Shown one piece after another: positions 7,948-29,149 of a stretch of DNA of 64,000 nt. Position 1 is the stretch's first letter. The number at the start of each line of letters is the position of its first letter. The stretch lies in contig JAGKXC010000002.1 of the NCBI GenBank assembly GCA_021151535.1, forward strand, positions 7,174 to 71,173, in the 5' to 3' direction. A program made the translations under genes and the position numbers. The DNA comes from Sphingobacteriia bacterium. GTDB lineage: Bacteria; Bacteroidota; Bacteroidia; NS11-12g; UBA955. The notes beneath the pieces were generated by a model, which saw only the letters and a list, made by a program, of their open reading frames with translations, did no database searches and was not told the DNA's origin.

Positions 7948-8754
7948 ATGGACTTTACAGGTTTTGAGTACGAGAAATTTTTGCAACATGTTTTAGAACA
8001 TGGTAATAGAAAAACGGATAGAACGGGCACTGGTACCATCAGCGTTTTTGGTGGGCAGTTGCGTTTTGATCTACAAAAGGGTTTCCCACTCATAACTACC
8101 AAGAAAGTGCATTTAAAAAGCATTATCTATGAATTACTTTGGTTTTTGAAAGGTGAAACCAATATCCAATATTTGAAAGAAAACGGAGTAAGTATTTGGG
8201 ATGAATGGGCTGATGAAAATGGTGAATTGGGTCCTGTTTACGGAAAACAATGGCGCTCTTGGGAAGCAAAAGACGGACGGGTAATTGACCAAATTAGTGA
8301 AGCATTGCATTTGATTAAAAATAGTCCTGATAGTAGAAGGATTTTAGTGAATGCTTGGAATGTGGGTGAAATTGATAAAATGGCTTTGATGCCTTGCCAT
8401 ACCATGTTTCAATTCTACGTTGCAGACGGAAAATTGAGTTGCCAATTGTATCAAAGAAGTGCTGATTTGTTTTTAGGTGTGCCTTTTAATATTGCCAGTT
8501 ACGCATTGTTAACCATGATGATGGCACAGGTTTGTGGATTGCAATATGGCGATTTTGTGCATACGTTTGGCGATGCGCATATCTATTCGAATCATATGGA
8601 TCAAGTGAATCTGCAACTTTCTCGTGAGCCAAAACCTTATCCAACGATGAGGTTAAATCCTGAGATTAAAGAGCTTTTCAACTTTACCTTTGAGGACTTT
8701 ACCTTAGAAGGATATGAACCATGGCCAGGAATTAAAGCGCCTGTTGCAATTTAA
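7948..8754 (+). CDS. thyA: thymidylate synthase
   Basis: Near-canonical ThyA throughout, including RTGTGT, the MALMPCH active-site Cys and the [17 protein letters not shown] block. Start at the second Met (MDFTGFEY). Confidence 0.95.
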
Positions 8755-11208: not shown

Positions 11209-11219
11209 AATTCCTCTAA

Positions 11220-12164: not shown

Positions 12165-12246
12165 TTTTACTTTGGTTGTTTTATTTATTAGCCATGTGGA
12201 TTCTTTGATTTGGAATCGGTGAAATATTGGCGGATTTTGCGATACT

Positions 12247-13335
12247 ATGTTGGACGCATTTTTTACGCCGGTAGATGAAAGATTTTGGGCTCCTTACAAG
12301 AGTGATAAACAACATGTTGGCGGAAGGTTAACGATACACGGAAAGGGATTTCCAAAGTTAAAAAAGTGTAAAATTGCGTTGATTGGTATTGGAGAAGATG
12401 CCAATTTGGTGAGAAAGCAATTGTATGCTTTGAATTGGCGATTTGCCAATTTGGAGATTGCTGATTTGGGTAATTTGGTATTGGCAGAAGATGAGAGAAA
12501 TCGCCAGTTTGCATTGAGTGAGGCGATGGGTGAGTTGATGGGTATGGGATTAACTGTGCTGGTTCTTGGCGGGAGTGAAAGCTATATTTTGGGCCAATAC
12601 AAGTCGTACAGAGATTGGAAGGAACCAGTAGAAATCGTGCAAGTAACGCCCGGAGTTGATTTTGATATTACTTCGCCGTTGAGGCAAATTTTAATTGAAA
12701 AGCCGAGTAATTTATTCAATATTGATTTTATTGCAACCCAAGCATATTATATAAGTGAAGAAACATCGGCGATGTTGGAAAAGATGTATTTTGAGAACCA
12801 TCGATTGGGTGAAATTCGGGATCGAATTGAAGAGACTGAGCCAATTTTGAGAAGTGCTAACATGCTTCAATTTAATATGAATGCGGTTAGGAATAGCGAA
12901 TGTCCTGGCACACAGATGAAATCGCCCAATGGACTTTATGCTGAAGAGGCTGCAAGAATTGCGCGATACGCTGGAGTTTCTAATAAATTGAATTCAGCTT
13001 TTTTTTATGGACTTGAGTCGGATGAAAATGATGTAGTTTCACCCTTGTTGCTTGCACAAATGGTTTGGTATTTTGTTGATGGATGGATGAGTAGATACCA
13101 TGATCACCCTACTGTGGATTCCCCTGATTTTGTGGTGTACAGAAATTTGTTAAGCACAACGGGTCATGAGATTGTTTTTTATAAGAGTAACAAAAGTAAT
13201 CGTTGGTGGATGTTGATACCGCATCCGTATGAGGAGAAGAATTTGTTTATAGGATGTTCTTATCGAGATTACGAATTGGTATGTGCTGATGAGATGCCTG
13301 ATCGTTGGTGGCGGGCTTATCAAAGAATGATGTAA
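12247..13335 (+). CDS. arginase/formiminoglutamase-fold family protein with degenerate metal-binding motifs
   Basis: Overall arginase-family pattern (IALIGIGEDAN..., LVLGGSESY where GGDHS is expected). Canonical Mn ligands appear substituted. Assignment is tentative. Confidence 0.3.
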   Translation: MLDAFFTPVDERFWAPYKSDKQHVGGRLTIHGKGFPKLKKCKIALIGIGEDANLVRKQLYALNWRFANLEIADLGNLVLAEDERNRQFALSEAMGELMGMGLTVLVLGGSESYILGQYKSYRDWKEPVEIVQVTPGVDFDITSPLRQILIEKPSNLFNIDFIATQAYYISEETSAMLEKMYFENHRLGEIRDRIEETEPILRSANMLQFNMNAVRNSECPGTQMKSPNGLYAEEAARIARYAGVSNKLNSAFFYGLESDENDVVSPLLLAQMVWYFVDGWMSRYHDHPTVDSPDFVVYRNLLSTTGHEIVFYKSNKSNRWWMLIPHPYEEKNLFIGCSYRDYELVCADEMPDRWWRAYQRMM

Positions 13336-13404
13336 TTGATTGAATTTGACCTTATTGGAAATGAGCGGTGCTCAATTTTCGATATATAATAAACGATTGG
13401 CGAT

Positions 13405-13442
13405 CTAAATTGTTAGAAATAGACAATACCTAAGTAACTTTG
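13405..13442 (+). promoter_or_regulatory. putative Bacteroidota sigma-A promoter (-33 TTG / -7 TAACTTTG) for the ferredoxin-NADP reductase-like gene
   Basis: TAACTTTG at 13435-13442 matches the Bacteroidota -7 consensus TAnnTTTG. A TTG lies ~22 nt upstream, and the ATG is at 13453. Confidence 0.3.
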
Positions 13443-13452
13443 CAAAATCAAT

Positions 13453-14526
13453 ATGGCAGAAGGTTTCCATTTATTAACGGTGAAGAAAGCAGTAAGAGAA
13501 ACTGCAGATGCTACCACTTTTTATTTTGATATTCCAGCGAACTTGCAATCTGAATTTGCTTATACGCCTGGGCAGTATCTAACGTTTGAGATAGAAATTA
13601 ATGGCGAAAAGGTGCGTAGGAGTTATTCGTTGTGCACCTATTCGGGTGTTGATGCAGATCCTGCTGTTACCGTTAAACGTGTGGATGGTGGAAGAATGAG
13701 TAACTTCATGAATGATCAATTGAAAGAAGGATCTACCATTGAAGTGATGCCTCCAATGGGTAAATTTACCATGAATCCTGAAGCAAATAGAGGTACACAT
13801 TATGTGCTTTTTGGTGGCGGAAGTGGAATTACTCCAGTTTTGGGTATTGCGAAGGCTGTTTTGGCGGATGAACCAAAAAGTCAAGTAACTTTGGTTTATG
13901 CCAATAGAAATCCAGAAACCGTTATTTTCAAGAGCCTTTTGGCAGAAATGGAGAAGCAATTCTCTGGGCGATTTAAGGTAATTCACAATTATGATTCAGC
14001 ACCATTAACTTGGTTTGGTTTGAAAGGAATGTTAACCAAAGAAAAGGTTGGAACAATTGTTAAAACTAAAATTGGTGGTTCTTTCGATACATATCAGTAT
14101 TTCATTTGCGGTCCGTCTGGAATGATGGATGTTGTAAAAAGCGGATTGAAAGATTTGAATGTACCTTCAGATAATGTGCATACCGAGTATTTTACTGCGC
14201 CAACCAGTTCTAGTAGTGAAACCCAACCCAATCAGGAAACAGATTTTAACGGAGTTGCAAACATCACATTAACCGTTTACGGCAAAACCCACACAATTAC
14301 ATGTGATCAAAATACTACAGTTTTGAATGCTGCTATGAAAAATGGAATCGATCCTCCATATAGTTGTACGGTTGGTGTTTGTACTACCTGCAGAGCAAAA
14401 GTGCTATCTGGCAAAATCCACATGTTGGAACGTGAAGGTTTGAGCGACTCAGAGGTTTCTCAAGGCTATGTTTTGACTTGTCAATCAGTGCCAAGAAGTA
14501 GTGAAATCGTATTGAAATACGAATAA
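13453..14526 (+). CDS. ferredoxin-NADP reductase-type oxidoreductase with C-terminal 2Fe-2S ferredoxin domain (PaaE-like)
   Basis: FAD-binding RSYS motif, NAD-binding GGGSGITP, and a C-terminal plant-type ferredoxin domain (CTVGVCTTCRAK...). Confidence 0.8.
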   Translation: MAEGFHLLTVKKAVRETADATTFYFDIPANLQSEFAYTPGQYLTFEIEINGEKVRRSYSLCTYSGVDADPAVTVKRVDGGRMSNFMNDQLKEGSTIEVMPPMGKFTMNPEANRGTHYVLFGGGSGITPVLGIAKAVLADEPKSQVTLVYANRNPETVIFKSLLAEMEKQFSGRFKVIHNYDSAPLTWFGLKGMLTKEKVGTIVKTKIGGSFDTYQYFICGPSGMMDVVKSGLKDLNVPSDNVHTEYFTAPTSSSSETQPNQETDFNGVANITLTVYGKTHTITCDQNTTVLNAAMKNGIDPPYSCTVGVCTTCRAKVLSGKIHMLEREGLSDSEVSQGYVLTCQSVPRSSEIVLKYE

Positions 14527-15607: not shown

Positions 15608-16468
15608 CTACATCTCAAGCTGAACTTTACCAACTACGAGTCCTGCCCAATGTGCTTGATTTACCAACACTTGTTTACCAACTGAATTTAAGGTATCTGT
15701 TGGTTTTTCCAAAAATGTGTGGGTATGTCCACCCATAATCAAATCGATATTTTGGGTGGTTTGTGCCAGTTTTAAATCGTCTATCTTGGGGGAATTGTAT
15801 TGATAACCCAAGTGAGAGATTACCACCACAAAATCACAATGTTCCACATGTTTAAGATGGTGGGCGTGGTGATTTACAATAGAGATAGGATCTTTATAAA
15901 GTAACCCTTTTCTCATGGGTTCAGCCACCAAATCTGAGAGGTCGATTCCCACACCAATAACGCCAACTTTGCACTTGCCTACTTGATAAGTATTATATGG
16001 CTTAACAATGTCTCTTAAAGGGGTTTGTGATACGTCGTAATTGCAATTTAATAAGTCAAATTGCGCATTCTGATTGAATACATCGGCTAAGTGTTCAGCA
16101 CCTAAATCAAATTCATGGTTGCCGAGTGTTGTAGCTTTGTAGCCAGCCTGGTTCATCCATTGGTATTCTACTTTGCCGCCAAAAAGGTTAAAGTAGGGAG
16201 TACCCTGAAATACATCGCCACAATCCAATAAAATGGAATTGCTATTTGTTTCTCTATCAATCACTGTTTTCAATTGGGTGATCCCCCCTTTGCCAGCGAA
16301 AGTTTTGTGGTTGGCTGGAAAAGCCTCTAAACGAGAATGGAAATCGTTGGTATGAAGAACTGTAATTGTTTTATTGGGCGATTTTGACCAAATTAATTCT
16401 GGTGCAATGAATGATCCGGCACCCAAAGCGAAGGAATTTTTTAGGAAGGTTCTTCTATTTTGATTCAT
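15608..16468 (-). CDS. metallophosphatase domain of a UshA-type 5'-nucleotidase, Tat-signal periplasmic protein
   Basis: Twin-arginine signal (NRRTFLKNSFALGAGS) and calcineurin-like motifs (LHTNDFHS, GDVFQGT, GNHEFD, GGHTH). Confidence 0.8.
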   Translation of the reverse strand: MNQNRRTFLKNSFALGAGSFIAPELIWSKSPNKTITVLHTNDFHSRLEAFPANHKTFAGKGGITQLKTVIDRETNSNSILLDCGDVFQGTPYFNLFGGKVEYQWMNQAGYKATTLGNHEFDLGAEHLADVFNQNAQFDLLNCNYDVSQTPLRDIVKPYNTYQVGKCKVGVIGVGIDLSDLVAEPMRKGLLYKDPISIVNHHAHHLKHVEHCDFVVVISHLGYQYNSPKIDDLKLAQTTQNIDLIMGGHTHTFLEKPTDTLNSVGKQVLVNQAHWAGLVVGKVQLEM

Positions 16469-16480
16469 AGCTTTGGATGA

Positions 16481-17293
16481 TTAATATCGGCTATTAATAG
16501 GTTGCATTAATAGAATCCTTGACTTTGGTTGGGGGTTGATTTTGCCTGTTGATTGATATTCTTTTTGAAATTCCTGAATTAGGATGTCGCGGATGAGTAT
16601 ATTGGTATTGTAAGATTCCACTGCTTTGGTGAGGATTTGGTATCCATCGCCCCCTAACCACATAAAGGAATTGATTGCTACCCAAAAGAAGTCTTTGTTT
16701 TTGTTGGTAGAAATTTTTGGATTAATTGGTTTTTGTAGATCAATTGTTAGTGTTGCGTGCGATAAGTATGCGCCATTTTTTTGGGCGATGTGCTGGAAAA
16801 GTGAATCTACTTGAAATGGGGTTAATTTTACAACAACCAATTCATTATCGTAGGGCATGGCTTCATAAATATTCCCTAAATTGATGTCTCCTGGGAATAA
16901 ACTATTTCTAATACTTCCATTATTTAATACCGCAAAATCACAAGAACTTGCTTTGTTTATTGATAACCAATTGTTCGCTGCTTCAAACATAAAGTCGGCT
17001 GCTTTATTACCTAAGTTTCCTACTGTATATTGGTTGCTCAAAATGGTGTCTAAATGAAAAATCATCTTGGCCATTTTGAGATTCATCGAGTCTTTGTAGG
17101 GTTGAAGAAAATTTGCCATTTTGGCGTTATCGGTGATTGAATCTACAATTTGTATGTTGTTATAAAATGGATGAAACTTTGAAACGAGAATGAATTCTTT
17201 TTTTTGTAAATTACAAGATGTCAATAATATGTAAAATATCAATAGCACATAAATGTTGAACCTTTGAATAATATGTGTTTGCTCGTATTTCAC
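16481..17293 (-). CDS. 5'-nucleotidase C-terminal (substrate-binding) domain lipoprotein
   Basis: Lipoprotein signal (LLTSC) and a 5'-nucleotidase_C-like region (NLGNIYEAMPYDNELVVVKLTPFQV...). Lies immediately upstream of the metallophosphatase gene. Confidence 0.7.
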   Translation of the reverse strand: MKYEQTHIIQRFNIYVLLIFYILLTSCNLQKKEFILVSKFHPFYNNIQIVDSITDNAKMANFLQPYKDSMNLKMAKMIFHLDTILSNQYTVGNLGNKAADFMFEAANNWLSINKASSCDFAVLNNGSIRNSLFPGDINLGNIYEAMPYDNELVVVKLTPFQVDSLFQHIAQKNGAYLSHATLTIDLQKPINPKISTNKNKDFFWVAINSFMWLGGDGYQILTKAVESYNTNILIRDILIQEFQKEYQSTGKINPQPKSRILLMQPINSRY

Positions 17294-17427
17294 TTATGCA
17301 AATTAAGTAGCAATTTTAGATTATCATCACAGTGCTTATTTTATACTAAAATAAGTTTTTGTTAAGTACTAGTTAAATAGTGGTAATAGATTGGTGATTA
17401 ATCGCTTTTTTTTAAGAATTTTGTATC

Positions 17428-18384
17428 ATGATTAGAAGAATTGTCTTAGGTTTCGTATCGATGATGAGTTTGGTTTCTGTTCAAGCTCAAAATTGCGATG
17501 AGTTGTTTATCTCTGAATACGTAGAGGGTTCTAGAAATAACAAAGCTTTAGAGATTTATAATCCTACAGGTGCGAGTATTGATTTATCAAAATACAGAAT
17601 TACCCGTTGGCAGAATGGGTCGGCACAATGGACAGCTCAATATTCAGATTCTTTAAAAGGCACATTGGAGTCTCATGATGTATTGGTTTGTGTGTTAGAC
17701 AGAAGAGATACCACAAAAATAGGGCAGGATACTCCGGTAGTATTACCATTGAGATTAAAGGCTGATTTGTTTTTAAGTGCTAATTACAATGTAAGTTATT
17801 CAATGAGTTTCAATGGCGATGATGCGGTATCGTTAGATAAGTACAATGAAGTAACAGGAAAGTGGGTTCCGGTTGATATTTTTGGAAAGATTGGCGAGAG
17901 ACCTTCACCAGCTTGGAGTGATAAAGCACCATACACTGGAACAGGTACATGGTATTCACAAGATAAAACATTGATTAGAAAAGATTCAGTTATGGGTGGT
18001 GTGAAGAAAAATCCTTCAATTTTTAATCCATCAGTTGAGTGGGAGTTAAATCCAAGAGACATGTTTGATTCATTGGGATTCCATTATTGCATGTGTGGGT
18101 GGCCAGCAAAAGTTAATGAAATGGAGAAATTAGCGGATATTACTTTATATCCCAATCCGAGTATTGACCATGTAACTGCTTTTTTGGGATTTGTGCCAAA
18201 TCAGGTGCAGGTTTTTGGTATTGATGGCCGAGAAGTGAAAATTGTTAATCAAGTAAGAGCAGATGAAAAATCAGGAGGATTTGTAATTTGGGAAGCGGAA
18301 ACCCAAACTTTGAGTGCTGGAACTTACATGGTGGTTTTTACGTCGAGCAAGGGTGAGAAATCCGTTGCAAGATTATTCAAATAA
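17428..18384 (+). CDS. lamin-tail-domain (LTD) protein with T9SS C-terminal sorting domain
   Basis: Signal peptide, LTD signature (LFISEYVEGSRNNKALEIYNPTGASIDLSKYRI) and a T9SS CTD (ITLYPNPSIDHV...GTYMVVFTSSKGEKSVARLFK). Confidence 0.7.
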   Translation: MIRRIVLGFVSMMSLVSVQAQNCDELFISEYVEGSRNNKALEIYNPTGASIDLSKYRITRWQNGSAQWTAQYSDSLKGTLESHDVLVCVLDRRDTTKIGQDTPVVLPLRLKADLFLSANYNVSYSMSFNGDDAVSLDKYNEVTGKWVPVDIFGKIGERPSPAWSDKAPYTGTGTWYSQDKTLIRKDSVMGGVKKNPSIFNPSVEWELNPRDMFDSLGFHYCMCGWPAKVNEMEKLADITLYPNPSIDHVTAFLGFVPNQVQVFGIDGREVKIVNQVRADEKSGGFVIWEAETQTLSAGTYMVVFTSSKGEKSVARLFK

Positions 18385-18408
18385 TAAAAATCGCCCAATA
18401 GAAATTTC

Positions 18409-21147
18409 ATGCATAGAATTGATCAATTGAGACTGTTGTTTTCAATGGCAACTTTGGTGGTTGTTGGGTTTTCTAATGCCCAAGTAACTATCAAGGGTAA
18501 GGCGGTTGATGATGTATCAGGTGAATTGTTGAATCAAGTTTCAATTTCCACTCGTAACCAAACTGTTATTACGGGTAAAGACGGTCAGTTTTCGTTGAAA
18601 GTTCCTATGGGGGAATACCGATTGGTGGCTCAATTGGAGGGTTATGAGGGCGATACGATTTATGTGCAGGCGGATCGTAATATGATCACTGATCTTGTAT
18701 TTAAAATGAATAATTTAAGTACAAGTATGCAGGCGGTTCAGATAACAGCCAGTGTTGCAAAGGATAGGAAAACGCCGATTGCTTATTCCAATATTACGGG
18801 AAAAGATTTACAAGATAGGCTGGGCAGTTCTGATTTGCCGATGCTATTAAACCAGATGCCTGGCGTGTACGCCACTCAACAAGGTGGTGGTGCTGGCGAT
18901 GCTCGTATCAATATTCGTGGTTTTAATCAAAGGAATATTGCGGTGATGATTGATGGCGTTCCGGTGAACGATATGGAAAATGGCTGGGTTTATTGGAGCA
19001 ACTGGTTTGGGTTGGGTGGTGTTACGGCACTTACCCAAGTACAGAGGGGATTGGGTTCTAGTAGAATTGCCAATCCGGCGGTAGGCGGATCGATGAATAT
19101 TATTACCAAAGGTTTAAGTAATAAGCAGAAAATTGACGCGGGAGTTGAGGTAGGAGATTCAAAATATCAGCAATATTCGTTGAGTTATTCTTCTGGAAAG
19201 TTAAAGGGCGATTGGGGATTTTCTTTTGCTTTTACTAAACGCAGTAGTGCCGGATATGTAGATTATCTATATGATGACATGTATGCTTATTTTTTCAAAG
19301 TTGAAAAGCAATTTGGAAAGAAGCACACGTTGGGATTTGCTGGGATGGGTGCACCCCAAAGTCATGGTCAGAGAAGTTACAAAGCGCGTTTAAGCTTATA
19401 TGATGAGAATCTTGCCAGGGAATTGGGAATGGACACATCCATGCCAAGGATGGCGAAAAACATGGGAAGAAAGTACAACCAGCATTGGGGCGCGATTCAG
19501 GAATATGATATTAATGATGCTGGTGATACAACTTGGGGTAGAAAATATATTCAGAATGAAAGAGAGAACATGTTTCACAAGCCGCAGTTTTATGTAAAGC
19601 ACGATTGGAAGCCCAATAAGAAGTTGTTGGTAACAACATCGACCTATGCGTCTTATGGAAGGGGGGGTGGAACCTCAGCAGCCTCTGGGAAAATCGCCCA
19701 AATTCCTCAAAATTATGGTACGTTTGATTTTCAATCGGCGTATGATAATAATAAATATGGCGATGGTTTTTTTTATGATCCAATTGATCCTAAATATTCA
19801 TTAACTGAGAAAAAATCGGCGGCTATTATACAACGCGGTGTGAATAATCACAATTGGTATGGTATTTTGAGTACATGGCAGTATAAGTTAAGCAAGGAAT
19901 GGCAATTAACGGGTGGAATTGATGCTCGATCCTATCGGGGTCAACATTGGAGAGAAGTTTATAATTTGTTGGGTGGAGATTATTTTATTCCGCAAACCAG
20001 TGATTTGAATCCGAAATTGGCCAAAGATCATATGTACCGGAAGGGTGATATTTTTTATTACCATAATGATGGACTGGTAAGATGGGGCGGATTATTTGGT
20101 GAAGCGGAGTATTCAAAGGGAAGAATGAGTGCTTTTGTGAATGTGAGTGGTTCAAGGAGCAGTTATCAGCGTATTGATTATTTTAAATTGGATTCTTTGG
20201 GAAATGCGAAGAAAACAGATTGGGTGAATTTGGGTGGAGGAACATTGAAAACAGGTTTGAATTATAATGTTTCACGCAAGTTTAATGCCTTTACGAATTT
20301 GGGATATTTGAATAGACCAGCGCGTTTTAGCAATATTTTTGATAATTCTAATAAGCGTGTTAAGGGGGTTGAAAATGAGCAGGTATATGCCATTGAAGGC
20401 GGATTGGGTTATAAAACCAAACGTTTGGTGTTGAGTTTGAATGCTTATTACACATTGTGGGATAATAAACCGGTGGATTACCTAACCACATTTACAGACT
20501 TAGATGGAAATAATTATTCATTTAATATTAATGGATTGGCGGCTAGGCATAAGGGCTTGGAATTGCAATACACTTTAAGGCCTGGCGATGGAATTACCAT
20601 TGAGGGAGGGTTAGCTTTGGGTGATTGGGTTTGGAAATCTGGGAGTAAGGCCATTGTTAGAAATGATGCTGGAGATTCTATAGGTGCGGTAGATTTTGAT
20701 GCCAACGGGGTGCATGTTGGCGATGCAGCACAGAATCAGGTTAGTATGATGTTTCGATGGGAACCTACCTATTTAAAAGGGGGTTATTTTACTTTTCAAT
20801 ATTTATATTTTGGAAAACATTTTGCGGATTTTGATCCAACCGTTTTAGTAGGTAGCTATAGAGGAAAAGAATCATTTCAATTGCCAAATTATTGGGTAAT
20901 TAATTTAAGTGCTGGATATCGGGCGACGTTAAAAAATGGATTGCGATTACAGATTTATGGTATGATCAATAATGTTACCGATAATTTGTACATATCCGAT
21001 GCACAACATAGAAGTTTGAGTTATAATTTGAATGTAAGTGCTGCGGAAGCCGAGGCAAACGCAAAATATACTTTTGATCCTAAGAATTTGGAAGTATTTG
21101 TATCGCCCGGATTAAGATTTACAACTGGAATTAGAATAGGAATTTAA
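18409..21147 (+). CDS. TonB-dependent outer-membrane receptor (CarbopepD_reg + plug + barrel)
   Basis: Signal peptide, a CarbopepD-like domain (VTIKGKAVDDVSGELL), plug motifs (NITGKDLQDR, GAGDARINIRGF, IDGVPVND) and a 912-aa barrel. Confidence 0.85.
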   Translation: MHRIDQLRLLFSMATLVVVGFSNAQVTIKGKAVDDVSGELLNQVSISTRNQTVITGKDGQFSLKVPMGEYRLVAQLEGYEGDTIYVQADRNMITDLVFKMNNLSTSMQAVQITASVAKDRKTPIAYSNITGKDLQDRLGSSDLPMLLNQMPGVYATQQGGGAGDARINIRGFNQRNIAVMIDGVPVNDMENGWVYWSNWFGLGGVTALTQVQRGLGSSRIANPAVGGSMNIITKGLSNKQKIDAGVEVGDSKYQQYSLSYSSGKLKGDWGFSFAFTKRSSAGYVDYLYDDMYAYFFKVEKQFGKKHTLGFAGMGAPQSHGQRSYKARLSLYDENLARELGMDTSMPRMAKNMGRKYNQHWGAIQEYDINDAGDTTWGRKYIQNERENMFHKPQFYVKHDWKPNKKLLVTTSTYASYGRGGGTSAASGKIAQIPQNYGTFDFQSAYDNNKYGDGFFYDPIDPKYSLTEKKSAAIIQRGVNNHNWYGILSTWQYKLSKEWQLTGGIDARSYRGQHWREVYNLLGGDYFIPQTSDLNPKLAKDHMYRKGDIFYYHNDGLVRWGGLFGEAEYSKGRMSAFVNVSGSRSSYQRIDYFKLDSLGNAKKTDWVNLGGGTLKTGLNYNVSRKFNAFTNLGYLNRPARFSNIFDNSNKRVKGVENEQVYAIEGGLGYKTKRLVLSLNAYYTLWDNKPVDYLTTFTDLDGNNYSFNINGLAARHKGLELQYTLRPGDGITIEGGLALGDWVWKSGSKAIVRNDAGDSIGAVDFDANGVHVGDAAQNQVSMMFRWEPTYLKGGYFTFQYLYFGKHFADFDPTVLVGSYRGKESFQLPNYWVINLSAGYRATLKNGLRLQIYGMINNVTDNLYISDAQHRSLSYNLNVSAAEAEANAKYTFDPKNLEVFVSPGLRFTTGIRIGI

Positions 21148-21149
21148 AA

Positions 21150-23381
21150 ATGAAAATGAAACATTATATCGCGGTATTGGCTTCTGTTTTTGCAGCCATG
21201 CCATTGTTCTCACAAGCATCGTTGCCTGCTTTTTGGAATTGTAATGATCCCGCGGCTGCTCCAACGGGTTGGACTTTAAATCAAGGAACATCGGGGAATT
21301 TTGTTTACACTTCAGCTGCTTTGATTAAGAGCGCTCCTGCATCCATTCGTTTAGACAATTCGAATGAATATGTTCAAGTGAATTACTCAGGTACTGCAGA
21401 TACCGTTTACTATTATATTACAGGTACGGGTGCAAGTGGTGCAAAAAGTTGGTCTGGTACTTTTGTTGTTCAGGAAAGTGCAGATGGCAGTGCTTGGAAT
21501 GATGTGGTAACTTATAACAATGATTTGGGCTTAACCATGATTCAGCGGTTTGCAGTTTTGAAGCCTGCTACAAAATATGTTAAGTTCTTCTTTAAATCTA
21601 AAATTTCTGGTTATAACGTTGCAATTGACGATATTACCGTAAGTGACGGAATAGGTGGTTCAAAGCCAGAATTGGTGGTTGAATATGCCGGTAAAACCCA
21701 ATTGGACGGTGGTAATATTCAAACAGGTAATGCAGATAATTTTTTGATTACCCTGAAGAATAATAGTTCATCTGGCGATTTAGTTGTTTCAAGTTTGAGT
21801 AAAACAGGTTTAAATGCTAATGATTTTACGACTTTACAAACATTTCCTTTTACTATAACGGCGGGTAGTTCTAAGGACGTTCAGATTGATGTGAATACAG
21901 CAATTTTGAGTGGTTCTTTGAAAGCTACATTGCAGTTTTATACCAATGACAGCACGCAATTGCCGTTTGATTTGGATGTATATGCTATTCGTGGTAGTGC
22001 GGCCACAGAGCCTATTTCAAAGGCTTCCAAAATTGTGTTGAAATCAAATTTGGCTTGGAAGAGTGTGGTTACTTTAAATAATGGCACTGAAACGGTAGAT
22101 GGATATTTGATTTTAGTTACTAAGGATGCCGCTGGTACTGATTTGCCGATTGATGGTGTTCAGTATGAAAGAGGCGGATACATTGGCTCCTCAAGGGTGC
22201 TTTATGTTGGAAATGCTGGCGATGTTACTTATGATAATATCATTGCGAATACCCATTATTTTACTCGTGTTTTCAGTTTCAATGGTTACGGCAACTTTAT
22301 TAACTATTATACCGGTGCTAGTACCAATTTGGATTACACAACTCCAGGTTTGGATGCTGGCTCGTATTATGGTTCATTAACTGAGGCTGATACCCAATTG
22401 GTAAGCAAGTTGCGCTCAATAGTTAGACCGCACTATCAGGTGTTTTATTCAAATTACGGTGCAACCATTGCAAGTAATTTTGAGGCAAGAGATACTACAG
22501 AAGGTAAAAAAGTAATAAATTGTTTTTATAGTGGTTATCCATACGTGTTTACACCTCCGTTTTTCTTTAATACTGCAGATCCGAACTATTTGAGCAGAGA
22601 ACATTCTTATCCATATTCTTGGATGCCTGAAAGTAGCCAGGATAGTGCAAACTACAGTGATTTACATATTTTGTATTTAGTGCATCAGAATGAGGTGAAT
22701 TCTCGCAGAAGTAATTATCCCTATGGCGATTTAAAAACAGTTACTGTTGATTTTTATGGAGGCAAGTTTGGTACAGATAGTATGGGTGAATTTGCCTATG
22801 AGCCGAGAGATTTTGCTAAGGGTACGGTTGCTCGTTCTCAATTTTACATTTGTGCAACTTACAATCGCCCAGACAAAGTATTTACCATTCCTACATCAAA
22901 TGATTTCTTGGGTATGAATCAAGATCAAGCAGTTTTGAAGCGTTGGAATAAGAAATTCCCGCCAACAAATTGGGAAATTGCTAGAAGTGAATATATCTCA
23001 ACTGTTCAGAAAAATAGAAATCCATTTGTGGATCATCCTGATTGGGCTTGTTTTATTGATTTTAGTAAAATGGTATATATCCCAGGAGGCAGTTGCGGAA
23101 GTGGGCCTGTAGATGCTGTAAATACTCCTAAGAAATCCATAGTTAATATTAATGCTTATCCAAGTCCTGCAGTTGGTCAAATGACAGTTGATTTAAGTGC
23201 ATTCAAAGGAGAAAAAGTAACGGTTAGTTTAACTGATTATTTTGAAAGAACGGTATATGTAAAGGAGGTTAATGGTAGTGAATCTTTGGTAATTCCTACT
23301 GGTAATTATGCTTCTGGAACCTATTTGTTATTAGTAGAAGGTGCTCAAAAACATGCAGCAAAAGCTGTAGTTGTTGATTAA
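21150..23381 (+). CDS. extracellular endonuclease I (EndA/NucM family) with N-terminal accessory domains and T9SS C-terminal sorting domain
   Basis: Endonuclease-I catalytic blocks EHSYPYSW and DLHILYLVHQNEVNSRRSNYPYG, matching recalled EHxxP.SW and DLHNL.P..G.VN..RSN. Signal peptide plus a T9SS CTD (INAYPSPAVGQMTVDLS...GTYLLLVEGAQKHAAKAVVVD). Confidence 0.8.
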   Translation: MKMKHYIAVLASVFAAMPLFSQASLPAFWNCNDPAAAPTGWTLNQGTSGNFVYTSAALIKSAPASIRLDNSNEYVQVNYSGTADTVYYYITGTGASGAKSWSGTFVVQESADGSAWNDVVTYNNDLGLTMIQRFAVLKPATKYVKFFFKSKISGYNVAIDDITVSDGIGGSKPELVVEYAGKTQLDGGNIQTGNADNFLITLKNNSSSGDLVVSSLSKTGLNANDFTTLQTFPFTITAGSSKDVQIDVNTAILSGSLKATLQFYTNDSTQLPFDLDVYAIRGSAATEPISKASKIVLKSNLAWKSVVTLNNGTETVDGYLILVTKDAAGTDLPIDGVQYERGGYIGSSRVLYVGNAGDVTYDNIIANTHYFTRVFSFNGYGNFINYYTGASTNLDYTTPGLDAGSYYGSLTEADTQLVSKLRSIVRPHYQVFYSNYGATIASNFEARDTTEGKKVINCFYSGYPYVFTPPFFFNTADPNYLSREHSYPYSWMPESSQDSANYSDLHILYLVHQNEVNSRRSNYPYGDLKTVTVDFYGGKFGTDSMGEFAYEPRDFAKGTVARSQFYICATYNRPDKVFTIPTSNDFLGMNQDQAVLKRWNKKFPPTNWEIARSEYISTVQKNRNPFVDHPDWACFIDFSKMVYIPGGSCGSGPVDAVNTPKKSIVNINAYPSPAVGQMTVDLSAFKGEKVTVSLTDYFERTVYVKEVNGSESLVIPTGNYASGTYLLLVEGAQKHAAKAVVVD

Positions 23382-23390
23382 TTTGCTGCC

Positions 23391-24251
23391 ATGAAATTGG
23401 ATTTTAGAAGCGATGAAATTCGCGGTTTAATTCAACGTTGTTTGGCAGAGGATATTGGCCCAGGCGATTTTTCTAGTTTGGCATCTATACCACAAGGAAC
23501 TTTGGGTAAGAGTAAGCTTATTTTAAAGCAAAATGGTGTTGTTGCTGGATTGGAATTAGCCGAAGTGATATTTGATGAATTAGGTGGCGGTATCAGATGG
23601 AAATGGTTTGCGAAAGATGGTGATTTCCTTACAGCGGGAACCATTTTGGCGGAGGCAGAAGGAAGTGTGCATACTTTGCTAGCAGGTGAGCGCTTGATGT
23701 TGAATTTCATGCAACGATTGAGTGGCGTAGCTACACAGGCTAAGCAAGCGTCTGATTTAGTTGTTGGAACGAAGGCGAAGGTATTAGATACGAGAAAAAC
23801 AACTCCTGGTTTGAGATTGTTAGAAAAGTGGGCTGTGGCTATAGGTGGTGGTAATAACCATAGAATTGGTTTGTATGATATGGTGATGCTGAAGGATAAC
23901 CACAATGATTCTGCTGGTGGAATTACTGCAGCCGTTGAGCGTACAAAAAGTTATTTGTTGCGGCATAATCTTACCCTAGATATTGAAGTGGAGACTCGAA
24001 ATATGGAAGAGGTGAGGGAAGTACTCAGATTGACAGGAGTTAGGCGCTTGATGTTGGATAATTTTACACCTGATGCCTGTGCTGTTGCTGTGCAGGAAAT
24101 TGCCGGACGTGTGGAAGTTGAAGCTTCTGGTGGAATTACTTTAAGTAACATTCGTGACTATGCCGAATCTGGTGTAGATTATATATCTTTGGGTAGTTTA
24201 ACACATACAGTTCAGTCGTTAGACATCAGTTTTAAAACCAAAATCAATTAA
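23391..24251 (+). CDS. nadC: nicotinate-nucleotide pyrophosphorylase [carboxylating] (quinolinate phosphoribosyltransferase)
   Basis: 286 aa with LLAGERLMLNFMQRLSGVAT, DTRKTTPGLR and GGGNNHRIGLYD, typical NadC. Confidence 0.85.
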   Translation: MKLDFRSDEIRGLIQRCLAEDIGPGDFSSLASIPQGTLGKSKLILKQNGVVAGLELAEVIFDELGGGIRWKWFAKDGDFLTAGTILAEAEGSVHTLLAGERLMLNFMQRLSGVATQAKQASDLVVGTKAKVLDTRKTTPGLRLLEKWAVAIGGGNNHRIGLYDMVMLKDNHNDSAGGITAAVERTKSYLLRHNLTLDIEVETRNMEEVREVLRLTGVRRLMLDNFTPDACAVAVQEIAGRVEVEASGGITLSNIRDYAESGVDYISLGSLTHTVQSLDISFKTKIN

Positions 24252-24839
24252 ATGAAAAAGAATTTTTTTTCAGGGATCATCAAAGTTTGGGTGTTTTCCT
24301 TGTCTGTTACGATTGTAATTGCTGCTTGTGGAACCAAAAATAAAAGTGGAGATAATAAGTTGGACGAGAACTCAACAACTGTTCTTGGAACAGATACTCC
24401 CGTGAGTGAGGCTAGTATGGTTACAGAGGCATCTGCTTTGAGTACGGAATTAAAGTGGTATGATTTTGAGGAGGGAATGGAAAAAGCCCAAAAGGAGAAT
24501 AAGGCGCTTTTGATAGATGCTTATACAGACTGGTGCGGTTGGTGCAAAGTGATGGATAAGGAAACTTATAAGGATGCGAAGGTGATTGCTAAGTTGAATG
24601 AGAATTTTGTTGCAGTTAAATTCAATCCTGAATTAGATAAGAAATACAATGTAGACGGAACCGTTAAGAATGGCGAGGGTTTGTTATTGTGGTTAGCGCA
24701 AGGGAATCCCGGTGGTTTTCCTACCAGTTATTTTGTTTTTAATCCTTCAAAAAATATGCAAAGGGCGATGCAACCTGGCTATTTGCCTCCATCTGATTTT
24801 TTGAAATTATTGGATATGGTATTGGCCAAGAAAGGCTAA
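24252..24839 (+). CDS. thioredoxin-fold lipoprotein (DUF255/thioredoxin-like family)
   Basis: Lipoprotein signal (IAAC) and a YTDWCGWCKVMD thioredoxin-like CxxC motif. Confidence 0.6.
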   Translation: MKKNFFSGIIKVWVFSLSVTIVIAACGTKNKSGDNKLDENSTTVLGTDTPVSEASMVTEASALSTELKWYDFEEGMEKAQKENKALLIDAYTDWCGWCKVMDKETYKDAKVIAKLNENFVAVKFNPELDKKYNVDGTVKNGEGLLLWLAQGNPGGFPTSYFVFNPSKNMQRAMQPGYLPPSDFLKLLDMVLAKKG

Positions 24840-24940
24840 TTTCAACTTTCCAATTTTATTACTGTTTTTTAGGCGAATTTTGCACTTAGCATGATAGAGC
24901 TCAGCTTTAGTTGAGTTAGGTGCGATATGATTGAATTTCC

Positions 24941-26344
24941 ATGGGACGAAGACCAAAAGTTAAATTTAAAATTTACGAGCAGGTTACGATTGAATCTGCA
25001 GGAGCTGAAGGCAATGCTGTTGCACGCGTAGACGGCAAAGTAATGTTTGTTAAATACGGAGCACCAGGCGATGTAGTAGATCTGCAGGTAATTCAAAAAA
25101 AGAAGAATTACATGGAGGGAAGGATCATCAAGTTTCATGAACAATCACCGATGCGAATTCAACCAACATGTTCTCATTTTGGTGTTTGTGGTGGATGCAA
25201 ATGGCAACATCTGCCCTATTCCGAACAATTAAAAATTAAGCAACAGCAAGTAATCGATGCTATGCAGCGTATCGGTAAACTTAAGGATTTTGAAGTATTA
25301 CCTATTTTGGGAAGTACCCAAGAATATGGCTATAGAAATAAACTGGATTTGAGTTTTTCTAATCGTGCTTGGACTTTATTGCCGCCGCAGGAAGGAGAAG
25401 AAAGGCCCAAAGCACTCGGATTTCACGTTCCAGGCAGATTTGATCGCGTTTTAGATGTAAATGCATGTTACTTGATGCCAGATTTGGTTAATCGCTTACA
25501 TCGCTCGGTAAAGGCTTATTGTGAAGCAAATGGACTGAGCTTTTTTGATCCAGTTACCCAAGAGGGTTTGATGCGAAACTTGTTAGTTAGATGCAATCGC
25601 GATGGGGGTTGGATGGTTTTATTATCTTTCAAAGAACGAGATGAGACTGCAATTCAAGGGTTAATGAGCCATGTAAAGGCTGAATTTCCGGAAATTGTTT
25701 CCTTGTTATTTGTGGTCAATAGCAAACGCAACGATACTTTACAAGATTTGGAAGTGGAGTGTTTTTCAGGTGAAGCATTTTTGACTGAGCGCCTCGGGAA
25801 TCTTACTTATAAAATTAGACCACAGAGCTTCTTTCAAACCAATACATTACAGGCTGAAATTCTATATCAAATTACCAAAGATTTTGCTGGATTAACCGGC
25901 AAAGAATTGGTGTACGATTTATATACTGGCACAGGAAGTATCGCCCTTTTTGTAGCTGACGGTGCTAAGGAAGTTGTGGGAATAGAATATGTGGAAGAAG
26001 CCATCGCCGATGCAAAGGAAAACATGCAAATGAATGGAATTTCGCATTGTAAATTCTATGCTGGCGATATGAAGGATATTTTAACCGGCGATTTTATTTT
26101 GGAACATGGGAGGCCAGACGTTGTAATTACTGATCCTCCAAGAGATGGCATGCATCCGAGTGTAGTTGCAAGGTTGTTGGAGGCAGAGCCTCTGAAAATA
26201 GTTTATGTGAGTTGTAATCCTGCAACACAAGCCAGAGATGCTGCTTTGTTGGCGGAGAAATATGATTTGGTGAAAATTCAACCGGTTGATATGTTCCCTC
26301 ATACACATCACGTAGAGAACGTGGGTTTGTGGAAATTAAGGTAG
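24941..26344 (+). CDS. rlmD: 23S rRNA (uracil-5-)-methyltransferase RlmD/RumA (TRAM + Fe-S + SAM MTase)
   Basis: TRAM domain, Fe-S cysteines (CSHFGVCGGCKWQH), and SAM-MTase motifs DLYTGTGSIA and DPPRDG. Confidence 0.85.
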   Translation: MGRRPKVKFKIYEQVTIESAGAEGNAVARVDGKVMFVKYGAPGDVVDLQVIQKKKNYMEGRIIKFHEQSPMRIQPTCSHFGVCGGCKWQHLPYSEQLKIKQQQVIDAMQRIGKLKDFEVLPILGSTQEYGYRNKLDLSFSNRAWTLLPPQEGEERPKALGFHVPGRFDRVLDVNACYLMPDLVNRLHRSVKAYCEANGLSFFDPVTQEGLMRNLLVRCNRDGGWMVLLSFKERDETAIQGLMSHVKAEFPEIVSLLFVVNSKRNDTLQDLEVECFSGEAFLTERLGNLTYKIRPQSFFQTNTLQAEILYQITKDFAGLTGKELVYDLYTGTGSIALFVADGAKEVVGIEYVEEAIADAKENMQMNGISHCKFYAGDMKDILTGDFILEHGRPDVVITDPPRDGMHPSVVARLLEAEPLKIVYVSCNPATQARDAALLAEKYDLVKIQPVDMFPHTHHVENVGLWKLR

Positions 26345-26416: not shown

Positions 26417-29149
26417 TTATGCGAAGCAAGCAGCAACGATTTCTGCTTGTTCTTTGTCGTAGATTTTCTTATAACCTGTTGCAGGAGAAGCGCTACTCTT
26501 TCTGCCGATATATCTTAAACTAACGGGGAAGTCATAACGTGCCAAGTGTAGCCAAGTGCCTTGGTTTTTTGGTTCTTCTTGAGCCCAAACAAATTCTGCA
26601 CCCTTGTATTGGTCGAAGATTTTAGCCAATTCCCACTCAGGTAAAGGATACAATTGTTCGATTCTCACTACAGCAACATCTTTGTGGTTGCCAGCTTCTT
26701 TTCCTGCTAAAATATCATAGTAAATTTTACCTGTACAGAATACAACACGTCTTACTTTTTTGTCAACTTGAGTATCGTTAATTACCTCTTGGAAAGTTCC
26801 TTTTTCTAATTCATCCAAAGTGCTTACACATTTTGGATGACGCAATAAGCTTTTTGGGCTCATGATTACCATTGGGACTTGGAAATTGCGTTTCAACTGA
26901 CGTCTGAATGCATGGAAAAGGTTTGCTGGTGTTGAGCAGTTTAATACCTGCATGTTTGAGCCAGCACAAAGCTGAAGATATCGTTCTAATCTAGCGCTTG
27001 AGTGCTCAGGTCCTTGACCTTCTTGTCCGTGAGGAAGCAACATAGTTAAACCTGAGAATTTGCCCCATTTGGATTCGGCACTAGCGATAAATTGGTCAAT
27101 GATGATTTGTGCACCATTAGAGAAATCACCAAATTGCGCTTCCCAGATTGTTAGACCATGGGGCATGCAAGTTGAGTATCCGTATTCGTAGCCCAAAGCT
27201 GCGTATTCACTCAATAATGAGTTGTAAACGCTGAATTTTGCTTGTTTTTCTGTAAGGTTGTTTAAAGGAGTATATTCAGCTTCGCTGTCTTCTTTCTTAA
27301 TTACAGCATGGCGATGTGAAAAAGTGCCTCTTTCAACATCTTGTCCAACTAATCTAACTGGGTGATTTTCTGTTAGCAAAGTGCCATAAGCCAATAATTC
27401 ACCCATTGCCCAGTCGATTGTGCCATTTTCAATCATTTTTGCGCGATCGGCAAACAGATTTTGAACTTTTTTAATAGGTAGGTTGTTTTCAGGGATGAAG
27501 CTTAATTTTTTGCCAATTTCAATCAGCTTTTCTTTGCTTACGCCTGTTTTTATAACGGTTTGGAAGTCTTTTGCGTTGGCGTGTTGGTAGCCTTCCCATG
27601 TGTTCTTCACTTGAGGCAATGTAGGTTTGAAATCGCCTTTAGCTTCTTCAAACTTTTCTTGCAACATTGATTTGAATTCCACTTCCATTTCTTGCGCTAA
27701 AGCAGCATCAATTTCACCGCGTTGTAATAATTTTTGCTTGTAAACTTCACGGGGATTTGGGTGCTTATCGATTAACTTGTACATTAATGGCTGAGTGAAT
27801 CTAGGTTCATCTCCCTCATTGTGACCATATTTTCTATAACCCAACAAATCGATAAAAATGTCTTGGTTAAATTCTAGTCGATAAGCCATTGCCAATTTCA
27901 CAGCATGTACTACCGCTTCAACGTCATCTGCATTAACATGGAGAACAGGGCAAAGCGTTACTTTGGCGATATCTGTACAGTATGTTGAAGTTCTTGAATC
28001 TAAATAATTGGTGGTAAAACCAATTTGGTTATTAGTAACTACGTGAATGGTTCCGCCCACATAATAACCTTCCAATCCGCTCATTTGTACAACTTCATAA
28101 ACAATTCCTTGACCAGAAACTGCTGCATCACCGTGGATGAGGATTGGGCAAATTTTGCTAACGTCGTTGTTGTATTTTTGGTCGAGTTTGGCTCTTGCCA
28201 ATCCTTTTACTACGGGGTTAACCGCTTCAAGGTGTGATGGGTTGTCTGCTAATCGAAGATGTACTTTTTTTCCGCTGGCTGTTTCAACATCTGTTGAATA
28301 ACCTAAGTGATATTTTACATCGCCCTCGAAATCTTCGAATCCTTCTTCAGTTTCATTTTGGAATACCTTTCCTTCGAATTCTGCGAAGATTTGGGAGTAA
28401 GTTTTATTAAAAATATTGGCTAAAACGTTTAATCTGCCACGGTGAGCCATTCCCATCACGAATTCTTCAACGCCCAAACCTGCCCCATATTGAACAACTG
28501 CATCCAAAGCAGGAATCAAGCATTCTAGACCTTCTAATGAAAATCTTTTTTGCCCGATATATTTGGTATGGATGAAATTTTCAAAAACTGTGGCTTGGTT
28601 TAATTTTTTCAAAAAGTGGCGTTTTTCATCCACAGTAAGATTAGGGATATTTTTGGTTTGTTCGAATCTTGATTGAAGCCATTCTCTTCTTTTGGGGTCG
28701 CGGATATAAGTGAATTCACAACCAATACTTTCGCAATAGGTTTGTTCTAAAATACTTACAATATCTTTCAATTTTGCCTGACCCAAACCAAGTTCATGAC
28801 CTGCGTTGAACGTTTTTTCAAGGTCTGCATCGGAAAGGCCAAAATTTTCTATTGCTAGAGTAGGTTGGTATTGCCTTCTTTGTCTAAGTGGATTTGTTTT
28901 TGAGAATAAATGACCACGCTGGCGATAGCCATTGATCAAGTTGAGTACATTGATTTCTTTGATCGCATCTTCTGAAATTGCTGCACCGGATTCAAACTTT
29001 TGCGTACCTAAGTCGAAACCTTCAAAAAACTTACGCCAACCAAAATCAACACTTTCGTTGTTTGATTGGTATTGCTGGTAGAGTTGATCGATGGCAGAAG
29101 GGTCTGCATTGTGAAGGAAAGAAACGTCTGGTTGGCTCATTTGATTCAA
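26417..29149 (-). CDS. sucA: 2-oxoglutarate dehydrogenase E1 component
   Basis: 910-aa protein with SucA-typical blocks (MGMAHRGRLNVLAN, ThDP-binding HGDAA..GQG, RHSSARLERYLQ). Confidence 0.9.
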   Translation of the reverse strand: MNQMSQPDVSFLHNADPSAIDQLYQQYQSNNESVDFGWRKFFEGFDLGTQKFESGAAISEDAIKEINVLNLINGYRQRGHLFSKTNPLRQRRQYQPTLAIENFGLSDADLEKTFNAGHELGLGQAKLKDIVSILEQTYCESIGCEFTYIRDPKRREWLQSRFEQTKNIPNLTVDEKRHFLKKLNQATVFENFIHTKYIGQKRFSLEGLECLIPALDAVVQYGAGLGVEEFVMGMAHRGRLNVLANIFNKTYSQIFAEFEGKVFQNETEEGFEDFEGDVKYHLGYSTDVETASGKKVHLRLADNPSHLEAVNPVVKGLARAKLDQKYNNDVSKICPILIHGDAAVSGQGIVYEVVQMSGLEGYYVGGTIHVVTNNQIGFTTNYLDSRTSTYCTDIAKVTLCPVLHVNADDVEAVVHAVKLAMAYRLEFNQDIFIDLLGYRKYGHNEGDEPRFTQPLMYKLIDKHPNPREVYKQKLLQRGEIDAALAQEMEVEFKSMLQEKFEEAKGDFKPTLPQVKNTWEGYQHANAKDFQTVIKTGVSKEKLIEIGKKLSFIPENNLPIKKVQNLFADRAKMIENGTIDWAMGELLAYGTLLTENHPVRLVGQDVERGTFSHRHAVIKKEDSEAEYTPLNNLTEKQAKFSVYNSLLSEYAALGYEYGYSTCMPHGLTIWEAQFGDFSNGAQIIIDQFIASAESKWGKFSGLTMLLPHGQEGQGPEHSSARLERYLQLCAGSNMQVLNCSTPANLFHAFRRQLKRNFQVPMVIMSPKSLLRHPKCVSTLDELEKGTFQEVINDTQVDKKVRRVVFCTGKIYYDILAGKEAGNHKDVAVVRIEQLYPLPEWELAKIFDQYKGAEFVWAQEEPKNQGTWLHLARYDFPVSLRYIGRKSSASPATGYKKIYDKEQAEIVAACFA

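Follow-up and report, generated by a model that had tools for sequence, protein, structure and literature searches.

The stretch of DNA considered here is 64 kb of contig JAGKXC010000002.1 from a Sphingobacteriia bacterium, an uncultured member of the Bacteroidota of freshwater type (hereafter the window, meaning the whole of that stretch), and our subject is a cluster of five genes within it that appears to serve the breakdown and uptake of extracellular nucleic acid. Calls of open reading frames (ORFs) and Pfam and NCBIfam scans of the window's proteins agree with the original prediction on these five genes, their coordinates, their domains and their export signals. On the ORF map they form two units. 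The minus strand carries the two halves of a split 5'-nucleotidase, namely a lipoprotein with a 5_nucleotid_C domain (16481..17293, with an uncertain GTG start) and a metallophosphoesterase (15608..16468), which begins 12 bp downstream of the C-domain gene. The plus strand carries a 318-amino-acid (aa) lamin-tail-domain (LTD) protein that is a type IX secretion system (T9SS) cargo (17428..18384), a TonB-dependent receptor (TBDR) of 912 aa (18409..21147) and a 743-aa endonuclease I with T9SS export signals (21150..23381); 24 bp separate the LTD gene from the TBDR gene, and 2 bp the TBDR stop from the nuclease start. Both halves of the predicted split nucleotidase are thus present, but on the opposite strand, with the C-domain gene leading and divergent from the other three genes, which implies two transcription units. 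An AT-rich intergenic region of 134 bp (17294..17427) lies between them and presumably holds the promoters of both.

The nuclease is a multidomain protein, with a signal peptide followed by a MAM-like beta-sandwich (residues ~23-170), an Ig-like domain (~172-282), an Fn3-like domain (~290-400), the Endonuclease_1 domain (416-630; Pfam, 97.9 bits against a cut-off of 25) and a T9SS type A C-terminal sorting domain (CTD; 670-743; Por_Secre_tail, 30.7 bits against 27). Its structural model has a predicted local distance difference test (pLDDT) score of 85, and the N-terminal 400 residues form three beta-sandwich domains resembling a MAM-Ig-Fn3 series. Both catalytic blocks that had been predicted are present, as SREHSYPYSW and DLHILYLVHQNEVNSRRSN, although in the second L and NEVN stand two residues further apart than had been written. 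The protein aligns to the Vibrio Vvn/EndA structures (PDB 1OUP and 2PU3), with the alignment to 1OUP spanning the DLH...EVN..RSN block, and none of R483, E484, H485, D504 and N517 varies among 36 database homologues or among 40 nucleases from related loci, so that by alignment the catalytic residues are intact. While these motifs are common to Vvn/EndA and the window nuclease, the endonuclease I domain is here one part of a larger T9SS cargo, 743 aa long and with several domains.

The TBDR comprises an N-terminal CarboxypepD_reg domain, a plug and a barrel by Pfam, and is predicted from its sequence and setting to import nucleic-acid fragments. As originally proposed, it has no SusD partner: its neighbors are the LTD protein and the endonuclease I, neither of which gives a SusD-family Pfam match, so that the locus is not of the SusC/SusD kind. 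Nor is it a vitamin B12 or siderophore receptor by sequence, an outcome that the original prediction had named as contrary to its proposal; the matches to such receptors are confined to the plug region and lie far below their cut-offs (BtuB 54.5 against 836, MxcH 22.8 against 925).

The LTD protein consists of a signal peptide, one extended lamin-tail domain (~22-235; Pfam, 48.1 bits against a cut-off of 34.3) and a T9SS type A C-terminal sorting domain (240-318), the latter scoring 28.7 against a cut-off of 23 for TIGR04183 and 25.7, slightly below the cut-off of 27, in Pfam. Its AlphaFold model (pLDDT 80) shows a lamin-type Ig-fold and then the sorting domain. The best fold matches in the PDB are lamin A/C (3GEF and 1IFR), in keeping with its assignment to the lamin-tail family (PF00932), and Foldseek returned lamin Ig-folds and generic Ig domains and nothing else. 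Both this protein and the endonuclease I carry signal peptides of the signal peptidase I type with T9SS CTDs, rather than the signal peptidase II (SPII) lipoprotein signals of the ddb loci discussed below. T9SS machinery was not seen within the window; in one relative (L004), SprA and PorZ adjoin the homologous genes. A further window gene at 1871-3883 (-) encodes a 670-aa T9SS cargo that combines a PNGase F C-terminal-like domain with a Por_Secre_tail, which indicates that the organism exports other enzymes by this route too.

Strong evidence on the function of the locus comes from the conservation of the LTD-TBDR-nuclease cassette, which the original prediction had set as a check on itself and which bears it out. 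We compared 88 loci, made up of eight metagenome contigs with TBDR homologues and, from a pattern scan, 80 genomes that each represent a species, all of the latter being uncultured metagenome-assembled genomes (MAGs) with a TBDR identity of at least 35%; identities over the 88 loci range from 35 to 75%, and the nearest GTDB species representative has a TBDR 66-67% identical to that of the window. The hosts of the 80 MAGs belong to the Flavobacteriales (among them Crocinitomicaceae, Cryomorphaceae, Taishania and Fluviicola), Saprospiraceae, Chitinophagales, Bacteroidales, Marinilabiliales and Lentimicrobiaceae, and several of the MAGs stem from the Lake Mendota series. An LTD homologue lies immediately upstream of the TBDR gene in 82 of the 86 loci where that region is present, and every full-length upstream homologue has the LTD (78/78), nearly always with a T9SS tail (77/78). 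Downstream lies an endonuclease I gene in 41 loci (Endonuclease_1 in all 40 products scanned, a T9SS tail in 39 of them). In at least 26 loci its place is taken by a gene of unrelated architecture, encoding DUF5689, Fn3, PLDc_2 and a T9SS tail (the phospholipase D, or PLD, type), and only four loci with enough sequence have some other gene there. Median gaps are 40 bp between the LTD and TBDR genes and 20 bp between the TBDR and nuclease genes, and in the distant members L005-L008 the genes around the cassette are unrelated.

The two nuclease types are interleaved on a neighbor-joining tree of the TBDRs, which indicates repeated non-orthologous replacement of the nuclease while the LTD-TBDR pair stayed constant. 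A transporter that stays constant while its nuclease has one or the other of two folds is a classic sign of functional coupling and marks nucleic acid as the substrate class, and it is this exchange of unrelated nucleases, together with the conserved neighborhood, that strongly supports the proposal of a system resembling a polysaccharide utilization locus (PUL) and directed at nucleic acid. The DUF5689 domain occurs in 20 of 30 non-endonuclease I downstream proteins, mostly of the PLD type, and in 9 of 40 of the endonuclease I type, where it is N-terminal. In two loci from Bacteroidales/Marinilabiliales, L046 (TBDR identity 37%) and L052, a small protein with DUF5689 and a T9SS tail follows the TBDR directly; L046 is without an LTD gene, and the upstream region of L052 falls beyond the contig end. 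At a threshold as loose as E<=10, Pfam detects DUF5689 in none of the window proteins. A DUF5689 hidden in the N-terminus of the window endonuclease I was considered and rejected: at that threshold only a weak F5/8-type C match appears, an hhalign comparison of the endonuclease I family with the DUF5689-PLD family aligns the T9SS tail only, and the model is MAM-Ig-Fn3-like. Separately, several loci carrying the cassette (L016, L018, L019, L022, L012, L029, L041, L082 and L027) come from MAGs labelled Sphingomonadales, Rhizobium, Chitinophaga pinensis, Parcubacteria, Comamonadaceae or Thalassomonas; given the clearly Bacteroidota cassette, it looks as though these labels are wrong or the contigs mis-binned.

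The split 5'-nucleotidase is less widely shared. Its metallophosphoesterase half matches Metallophos at 54.3 bits (Pfam cut-off 21.5), has UshA as its best NCBIfam match over residues 27-256, and is predicted to be periplasmic on the strength of a twin-arginine translocation (Tat) motif, NRRTFLK, at its N-terminus (MNQNRRTFLK...). The other half matches 5_nucleotid_C at 66.2 bits (cut-off 23.6) and UshA over residues 335-538, with a weak match to NadN_nucleosid_C, and has the lipobox LLTSC with no acidic export signal after the cysteine. The two halves jointly cover Escherichia coli UshA, but that enzyme is a single periplasmic polypeptide, whereas here the domains are divided between two genes, whose order is reversed and whose export signals differ, and the scores against the UshA equivalog are 101.7 and 66.1 where the cut-off is 600. 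Because the gene for the C-terminal domain precedes that for the catalytic half, a simple frameshift split does not account for the pair. A frameshifted single gene is likewise ruled out by the recurrence of this order, with an export signal on each half, in at least 25 loci. The order is constant among the homologue loci. A pattern search finds the Tat motif in 16 of 25 Metallophos homologues, with relaxed variants visible by eye in several others; a strict lipobox expression matched 12 of 27 C-domain homologues, nearly all of which have a cysteine lipobox by eye, and both signals occur in subunits of both of the locus arrangements described next. To judge by these sequences, the two-subunit arrangement is genuine and not a broken gene.

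The predicted place of a periplasmic 5'-nucleotidase in the system therefore stands in part: the link to the cassette is real but not universal, being seen in 27 of the 88 loci. In 17 of them, in the clade of the window (TBDR identity of at least 49%), the pair lies upstream of the LTD gene and is divergent from it; in ten others, at two separate positions on the TBDR tree, it is co-directional and directly downstream of the nuclease, as in Taishania (L066), where Pfam confirms both halves. This second arrangement provides independent evidence of selection on the linkage. The nucleotidase pair is not in the universal core, yet it has joined the cassette in at least two arrangements.

Coupling of a TBDR to nucleases, which the original prediction held not to be an established paradigm, has in fact been reported more than once (PMC8459023; PMC8851478; PMC12478041). 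In Riemerella anatipestifer, the carboxypeptidase regulatory-like TBDR RA0C_RS04915 and its neighbor RA0C_RS04920, a protein with choice-of-anchor J, DUF5689 and DUF5017 domains, are essential for natural transformation and adjoin a nuclease (PMC8459023, 2021). The Bacteroides thetaiotaomicron genes BT3560-3563 include a TBDR and an extracellular DNase, with BT3563 required for bile-dependent biofilms to form (PMC8851478, 2022). The six-gene ddbABCDEF locus of B. thetaiotaomicron, which corresponds to the BT3560-3563 region and encodes the TBDR DdbC, the DUF5689 protein DdbD and three nucleases, is needed to deplete exogenous DNA and was explicitly termed a PUL-like 'DNA-utilization locus' (PMC12478041, 2025); the DUF5689 of DdbD has a predicted structure resembling the dsDNA-binding domain of p202 (PMC12478041).

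The window cassette resembles ddbABCDEF in its PUL-like organization, with a TBDR of the CarboxypepD_reg and Plug type that stands without SusD beside an extracellular accessory protein and, in the endonuclease I, a secreted nuclease as in the ddb loci. DUF5689 also occurs in relatives of the window cassette, and Endonuclease_1 in a ddb-like locus of Aureibacter. The two nevertheless differ on several counts. The partner is a DUF5689 lipoprotein encoded downstream in ddbABCDEF and an LTD protein encoded upstream here, where no DUF5689 protein adjoins the TBDR; delivery to the surface is by lipidation (SPII) there and by a T9SS CTD here; and three nucleases there compare with one here, to which a split periplasmic 5'-nucleotidase is linked. 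The window TBDR is just 22-35% identical to ddb-like proxies, and the hosts here are uncultured environmental Bacteroidota. The Riemerella pair shares the carboxypeptidase regulatory-like TBDR, the adjacent extracellular partner and the neighboring nuclease, in a host that is likewise from the Flavobacteriales lineage represented among our loci, but its partner is the choice-of-anchor J, DUF5689 and DUF5017 protein, its role is natural transformation, and neither an LTD nor a nucleotidase has been reported for it. SusC/SusD PULs and the Flavobacterium PusCD systems, in which TonB-dependent transporters (TBDTs) are paired with periplasmic phosphodiesterases for organic phosphorus (PMC8115612), follow the same logic of a co-encoded surface enzyme, TBDT and periplasmic hydrolase; here there is no SusD or PusD lipoprotein and no carbohydrate-active enzyme, and the degrading enzyme is a nuclease. 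Finally, Flavobacterium johnsoniae EndA1/EndA2 (Fjoh_4721/4723; Fn3, LTD and Endonuclease_1), which are induced by phosphate depletion and were listed as 'orphan', resemble the window proteins, as do Shewanella ExeM and Vibrio Xds, in being extracellular and combining an LTD with a nuclease domain. In all of these the LTD is fused to the nuclease with no TBDR linkage reported, while the LTD of the window cassette forms a T9SS protein of its own and goes with a TBDR. The TBDR-nuclease principle is thus already published, and what is new is the LTD in place of the DUF5689 lipoprotein, T9SS export in place of lipidation, and the linked nucleotidase; in the searchable literature we did not find the LTD/T9SS architecture, its environmental breadth, the exchange of nuclease and binding domains or the recurrent nucleotidase linkage.

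Relatives of the TBDR outside the cassette point in the same direction. A tblastn search of 72,556 plasmid records (PLSDB) with the window TBDR gave four matches at E<1e-20, all from Bacteroidota and three of them beside DUF5689, DUF5017 or nuclease genes. The Phocaeicola massiliensis TBDR (33% identity over ~900 aa, E 1e-132; WP_165933237.1 by exact look-up, which is not the Pv1/Pv2 accession of the ddb paper) is followed by a DUF5017 lipoprotein gene. That of Aureibacter tunicatorum (22.6% over ~800 aa, E 4e-46, 228 bits by hidden Markov model) is followed by genes for two DUF5689 proteins, the first of which also has DUF5017, then for one Endonuclease_1 protein and a pair of EEP nucleases. 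The Flammeovirga kamogawensis TBDR (23.8% identity) has EEP nuclease and endonuclease genes on its flanks and is followed by a DUF5689, DUF6359 and LTD protein. In the fourth case, Persicobacter (L089; 35% identity), no nuclease occurs within 7 kb on either side, so the association of TBDR and nuclease is not absolute. The Phocaeicola-type and Aureibacter-type TBDRs are 25% identical, and the same value is given for the Pv-type and Bt-type DdbC proteins (PMC12478041). The homology of the window TBDR to those of Phocaeicola, L046 and Aureibacter extends over the entire barrel; as a control, the other TBDR of the window (8803-11208) matches over 170 plug residues only. Compared through these proxies, the window TBDR probably belongs to a broad, DdbC-like clade of TBDRs associated with nucleic acid.

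Taken together, these observations suggest that the locus is probably a nucleic-acid utilization locus, an LTD/T9SS-type counterpart of the Bacteroides ddb loci. Under this reading, the 743-aa endonuclease I would be exported by Sec and then by the T9SS, and would act at the cell surface or close to it, cleaving extracellular DNA or RNA to 5'-phosphorylated oligonucleotides. The LTD protein, also delivered by the T9SS, would work with the TBDR at the surface, either in substrate capture or in docking of the nuclease, and the TBDR would take in short fragments on TonB energy. In the periplasm, the Tat-exported metallophosphoesterase and the lipoprotein C-domain may assemble as an UshA-like enzyme that frees nucleosides and phosphate, for uptake through transporters whose genes lie elsewhere. 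Physiologically, the locus most likely serves to scavenge phosphorus and nucleosides.

Several observations weigh against this reading. The locus encodes neither a periplasmic exonuclease or phosphodiesterase that would convert oligonucleotides to mononucleotides nor an inner-membrane transporter, and in 61 of the 88 loci the nucleotidase pair is not found within 8 kb. Since the window clade also keeps a NadC-thioredoxin-TrmA synteny, the nucleotidase adjacency there may partly reflect inheritance. DNA is a poor sole source of carbon, nitrogen or phosphorus for B. thetaiotaomicron (PMC12478041), so that 'scavenging for growth' may overstate the role. The relation to DdbC (WP_008762511.1, WP_005843284.1 and WP_117829583.1) and to RA0C_RS04915 was judged through the proxy TBDRs. 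Lastly, the LTD domain is acidic, with a pI of 5.3 in the window and, by a crude estimate, a family median of ~4.2.

This last point bears on the part that had been proposed for the LTD protein, a DNA-binding partner, which our results leave without support. A recognizable DNA-binding fold was rejected on the lamin and generic Ig matches, on the acidic charge and on a PDB sequence search with the protein, which gave no match; moreover, deletion of the LTD from ExeM lowers activity in vitro, and in vivo the LTD is dispensable for DNA degradation. A role for the LTD in the handling of nucleic acid is instead suggested by its strict co-occurrence with the TBDR and by two kinds of fusion. The 1041-aa TBDR partner on the Flammeovirga kamogawensis plasmid p1 (L092 8704-11829) unites DUF5689, DUF6359 and an LTD, and, as read from this sequence, connects the LTD with the DdbD-type domain in the manner of a Rosetta stone; LTD-endonuclease I fusions occur in L030, in P0359 and in EndA1/EndA2. 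Given the acidic domain and the ExeM result, the LTD could be a docking element that holds nuclease or substrate at the transporter, instead of binding DNA itself. The copy number and position of the module seem fluid, as L005 (5775-7924) has two tandem genes for LTD and T9SS tail before the TBDR, and the L030 nuclease (10747-13839) has an N-terminal endonuclease I with the LTD internal. More widely, a profile search with the LTD partner recovered 945 cluster representatives at E<=1e-30, many of them LTD+tail proteins of 300-340 aa. The role of the LTD, which we infer from these associations, is the weakest link of the mechanism.

We therefore advance only tentatively, as a conjecture that may well prove wrong, a more far-reaching version: that the T9SS-delivered LTD protein is a dedicated surface substrate-capture subunit of a DdbC-like TBDT, that bacterial lamin-tail domains handle nucleic acid or oligonucleotides, and that the LTD-TBDR-nuclease cassette is the main route of extracellular DNA and RNA turnover in uncultured freshwater and marine Bacteroidota. 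If this holds, the LTD capture subunit would join SusD and DUF5689/DdbD as a third solution, and the LTD protein would be the first T9SS cargo to serve as a TBDT partner. No function is known to have been assigned to bacterial lamin-tail domains since 2004. A second lamin-tail protein occurs in the window at 50756-53866 (-); it is 1036 aa long, matches the LTD in two stretches (best 741-863) and no other Pfam domain, and its gene sits between methyltransferase and glycosyltransferase genes.

Nucleic-acid utilization has to be weighed against three other readings, and the best of these, though improbable, is that the cassette is an outer-membrane machine for DNA uptake in natural transformation, with the nuclease trimming the incoming DNA. 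The homologous Riemerella TBDR and DUF5689 pair, which is essential for transformation and adjoins a nuclease (PMC8459023), speaks for it, and by proxy the window TBDR falls in the same broad clade as RA0C_RS04915. A non-specific endonuclease released by the T9SS and a periplasmic 5'-nucleotidase are, however, catabolic and would destroy transforming DNA, and tests of DNA uptake in gut Bacteroidales with related ddb loci gave inconsistent results (PMC12478041). The competence genes comEC, dprA and comF were not found among the ~30 of 54 long window ORFs scanned, although 64 kb cannot exclude them. Less probable still is a role of the nuclease in remodelling extracellular DNA (eDNA) of a biofilm or matrix, or in countering DNA traps, with the TBDR and LTD protein doing another job and no fragments imported. 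BT3563, from the operon equivalent to ddb, is needed for biofilm formation (PMC8851478), and extracellular nucleases often have such roles (PMC6085458); but eDNA remodelling leaves unexplained why the TBDR is the invariant center of 88 loci while the nuclease type swaps, and why a periplasmic nucleotidase is recurrently recruited. That the TBDR imports some other phosphorylated or nucleotide-like compound (for example NAD/NMN, polyphosphate or phospholipid head groups) as a substrate of the PLD-family and 5'-nucleotidase/NadN-like enzymes is about equally improbable, for while PLDc_2 enzymes include phospholipases, the nucleotidase C-domain has its weak NadN_nucleosid_C match and NadC lies 9 bp downstream in the window, the PLD proteins bear DUF5689, the DdbD domain, and alternate with bona fide endonuclease I, and the NadC adjacency is limited to the window clade.

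Lakes, oceans and sediments hold large pools of organic phosphorus and nitrogen in the form of extracellular DNA and RNA, and the main polymer degraders there are Bacteroidota. The only TBDR-based nucleic-acid systems that, to our knowledge, have been characterized are those of a bird pathogen, for transformation, and of gut Bacteroides, for nucleobase production. If the locus is indeed one for nucleic-acid utilization, the cassette would extend the principle to many uncultured environmental lineages and reveal a modular system, in which binding may be provided by LTD, DUF5689, DUF5017 or DUF6359, cleavage by endonuclease I, PLD or EEP nucleases, and anchoring by lipid or T9SS. The succession of LTD-CTD, TBDR and CTD-nuclease genes could then serve as a three-gene marker for DNA-consuming Bacteroidota in metagenomes, and the cassette suggests a function, open to experimental test, for bacterial lamin-tail domains as well as for the split 5'-nucleotidase, which is widespread.

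As for regulation, a scan for sigma-70 promoters and terminators gave no excess over shuffled expectation, Rfam found nothing at the gathering threshold in the 64 kb, including 17294..17427, and the window has no tRNA genes. A k-mer search of 73 upstream regions found no motif common to the whole family; 9-mers were common to ~9 loci, which are probably close relatives. GC skew is positive across the entire window. Downstream of the cassette, 23391-26344 (+) encodes NadC (quinolinate phosphoribosyltransferase), beginning 9 bp after the nuclease stop, a thioredoxin-like protein whose gene abuts NadC without a gap, and a TrmA-like methyltransferase ~100 bp further; this tail is syntenic in the window clade only, and the spacing makes its co-transcription with the cassette by read-through possible. 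Another TBDR-partner pair lies 5 kb upstream at 8803-12164 (+), where an 801-aa TBDR, in which Pfam recognizes the plug alone, has a DUF4249 protein directly after it and thyA (7927-8754) shortly before. The genes for 2-oxoglutarate dehydrogenase E2-like (6319-7569, -) and E1 (26417-29149, -) proteins flank the cassette region ~19 kb apart, and in the relative L003 the nucleotidase pair has the E1 gene as its immediate neighbor, which together point to local rearrangement around the cassette.

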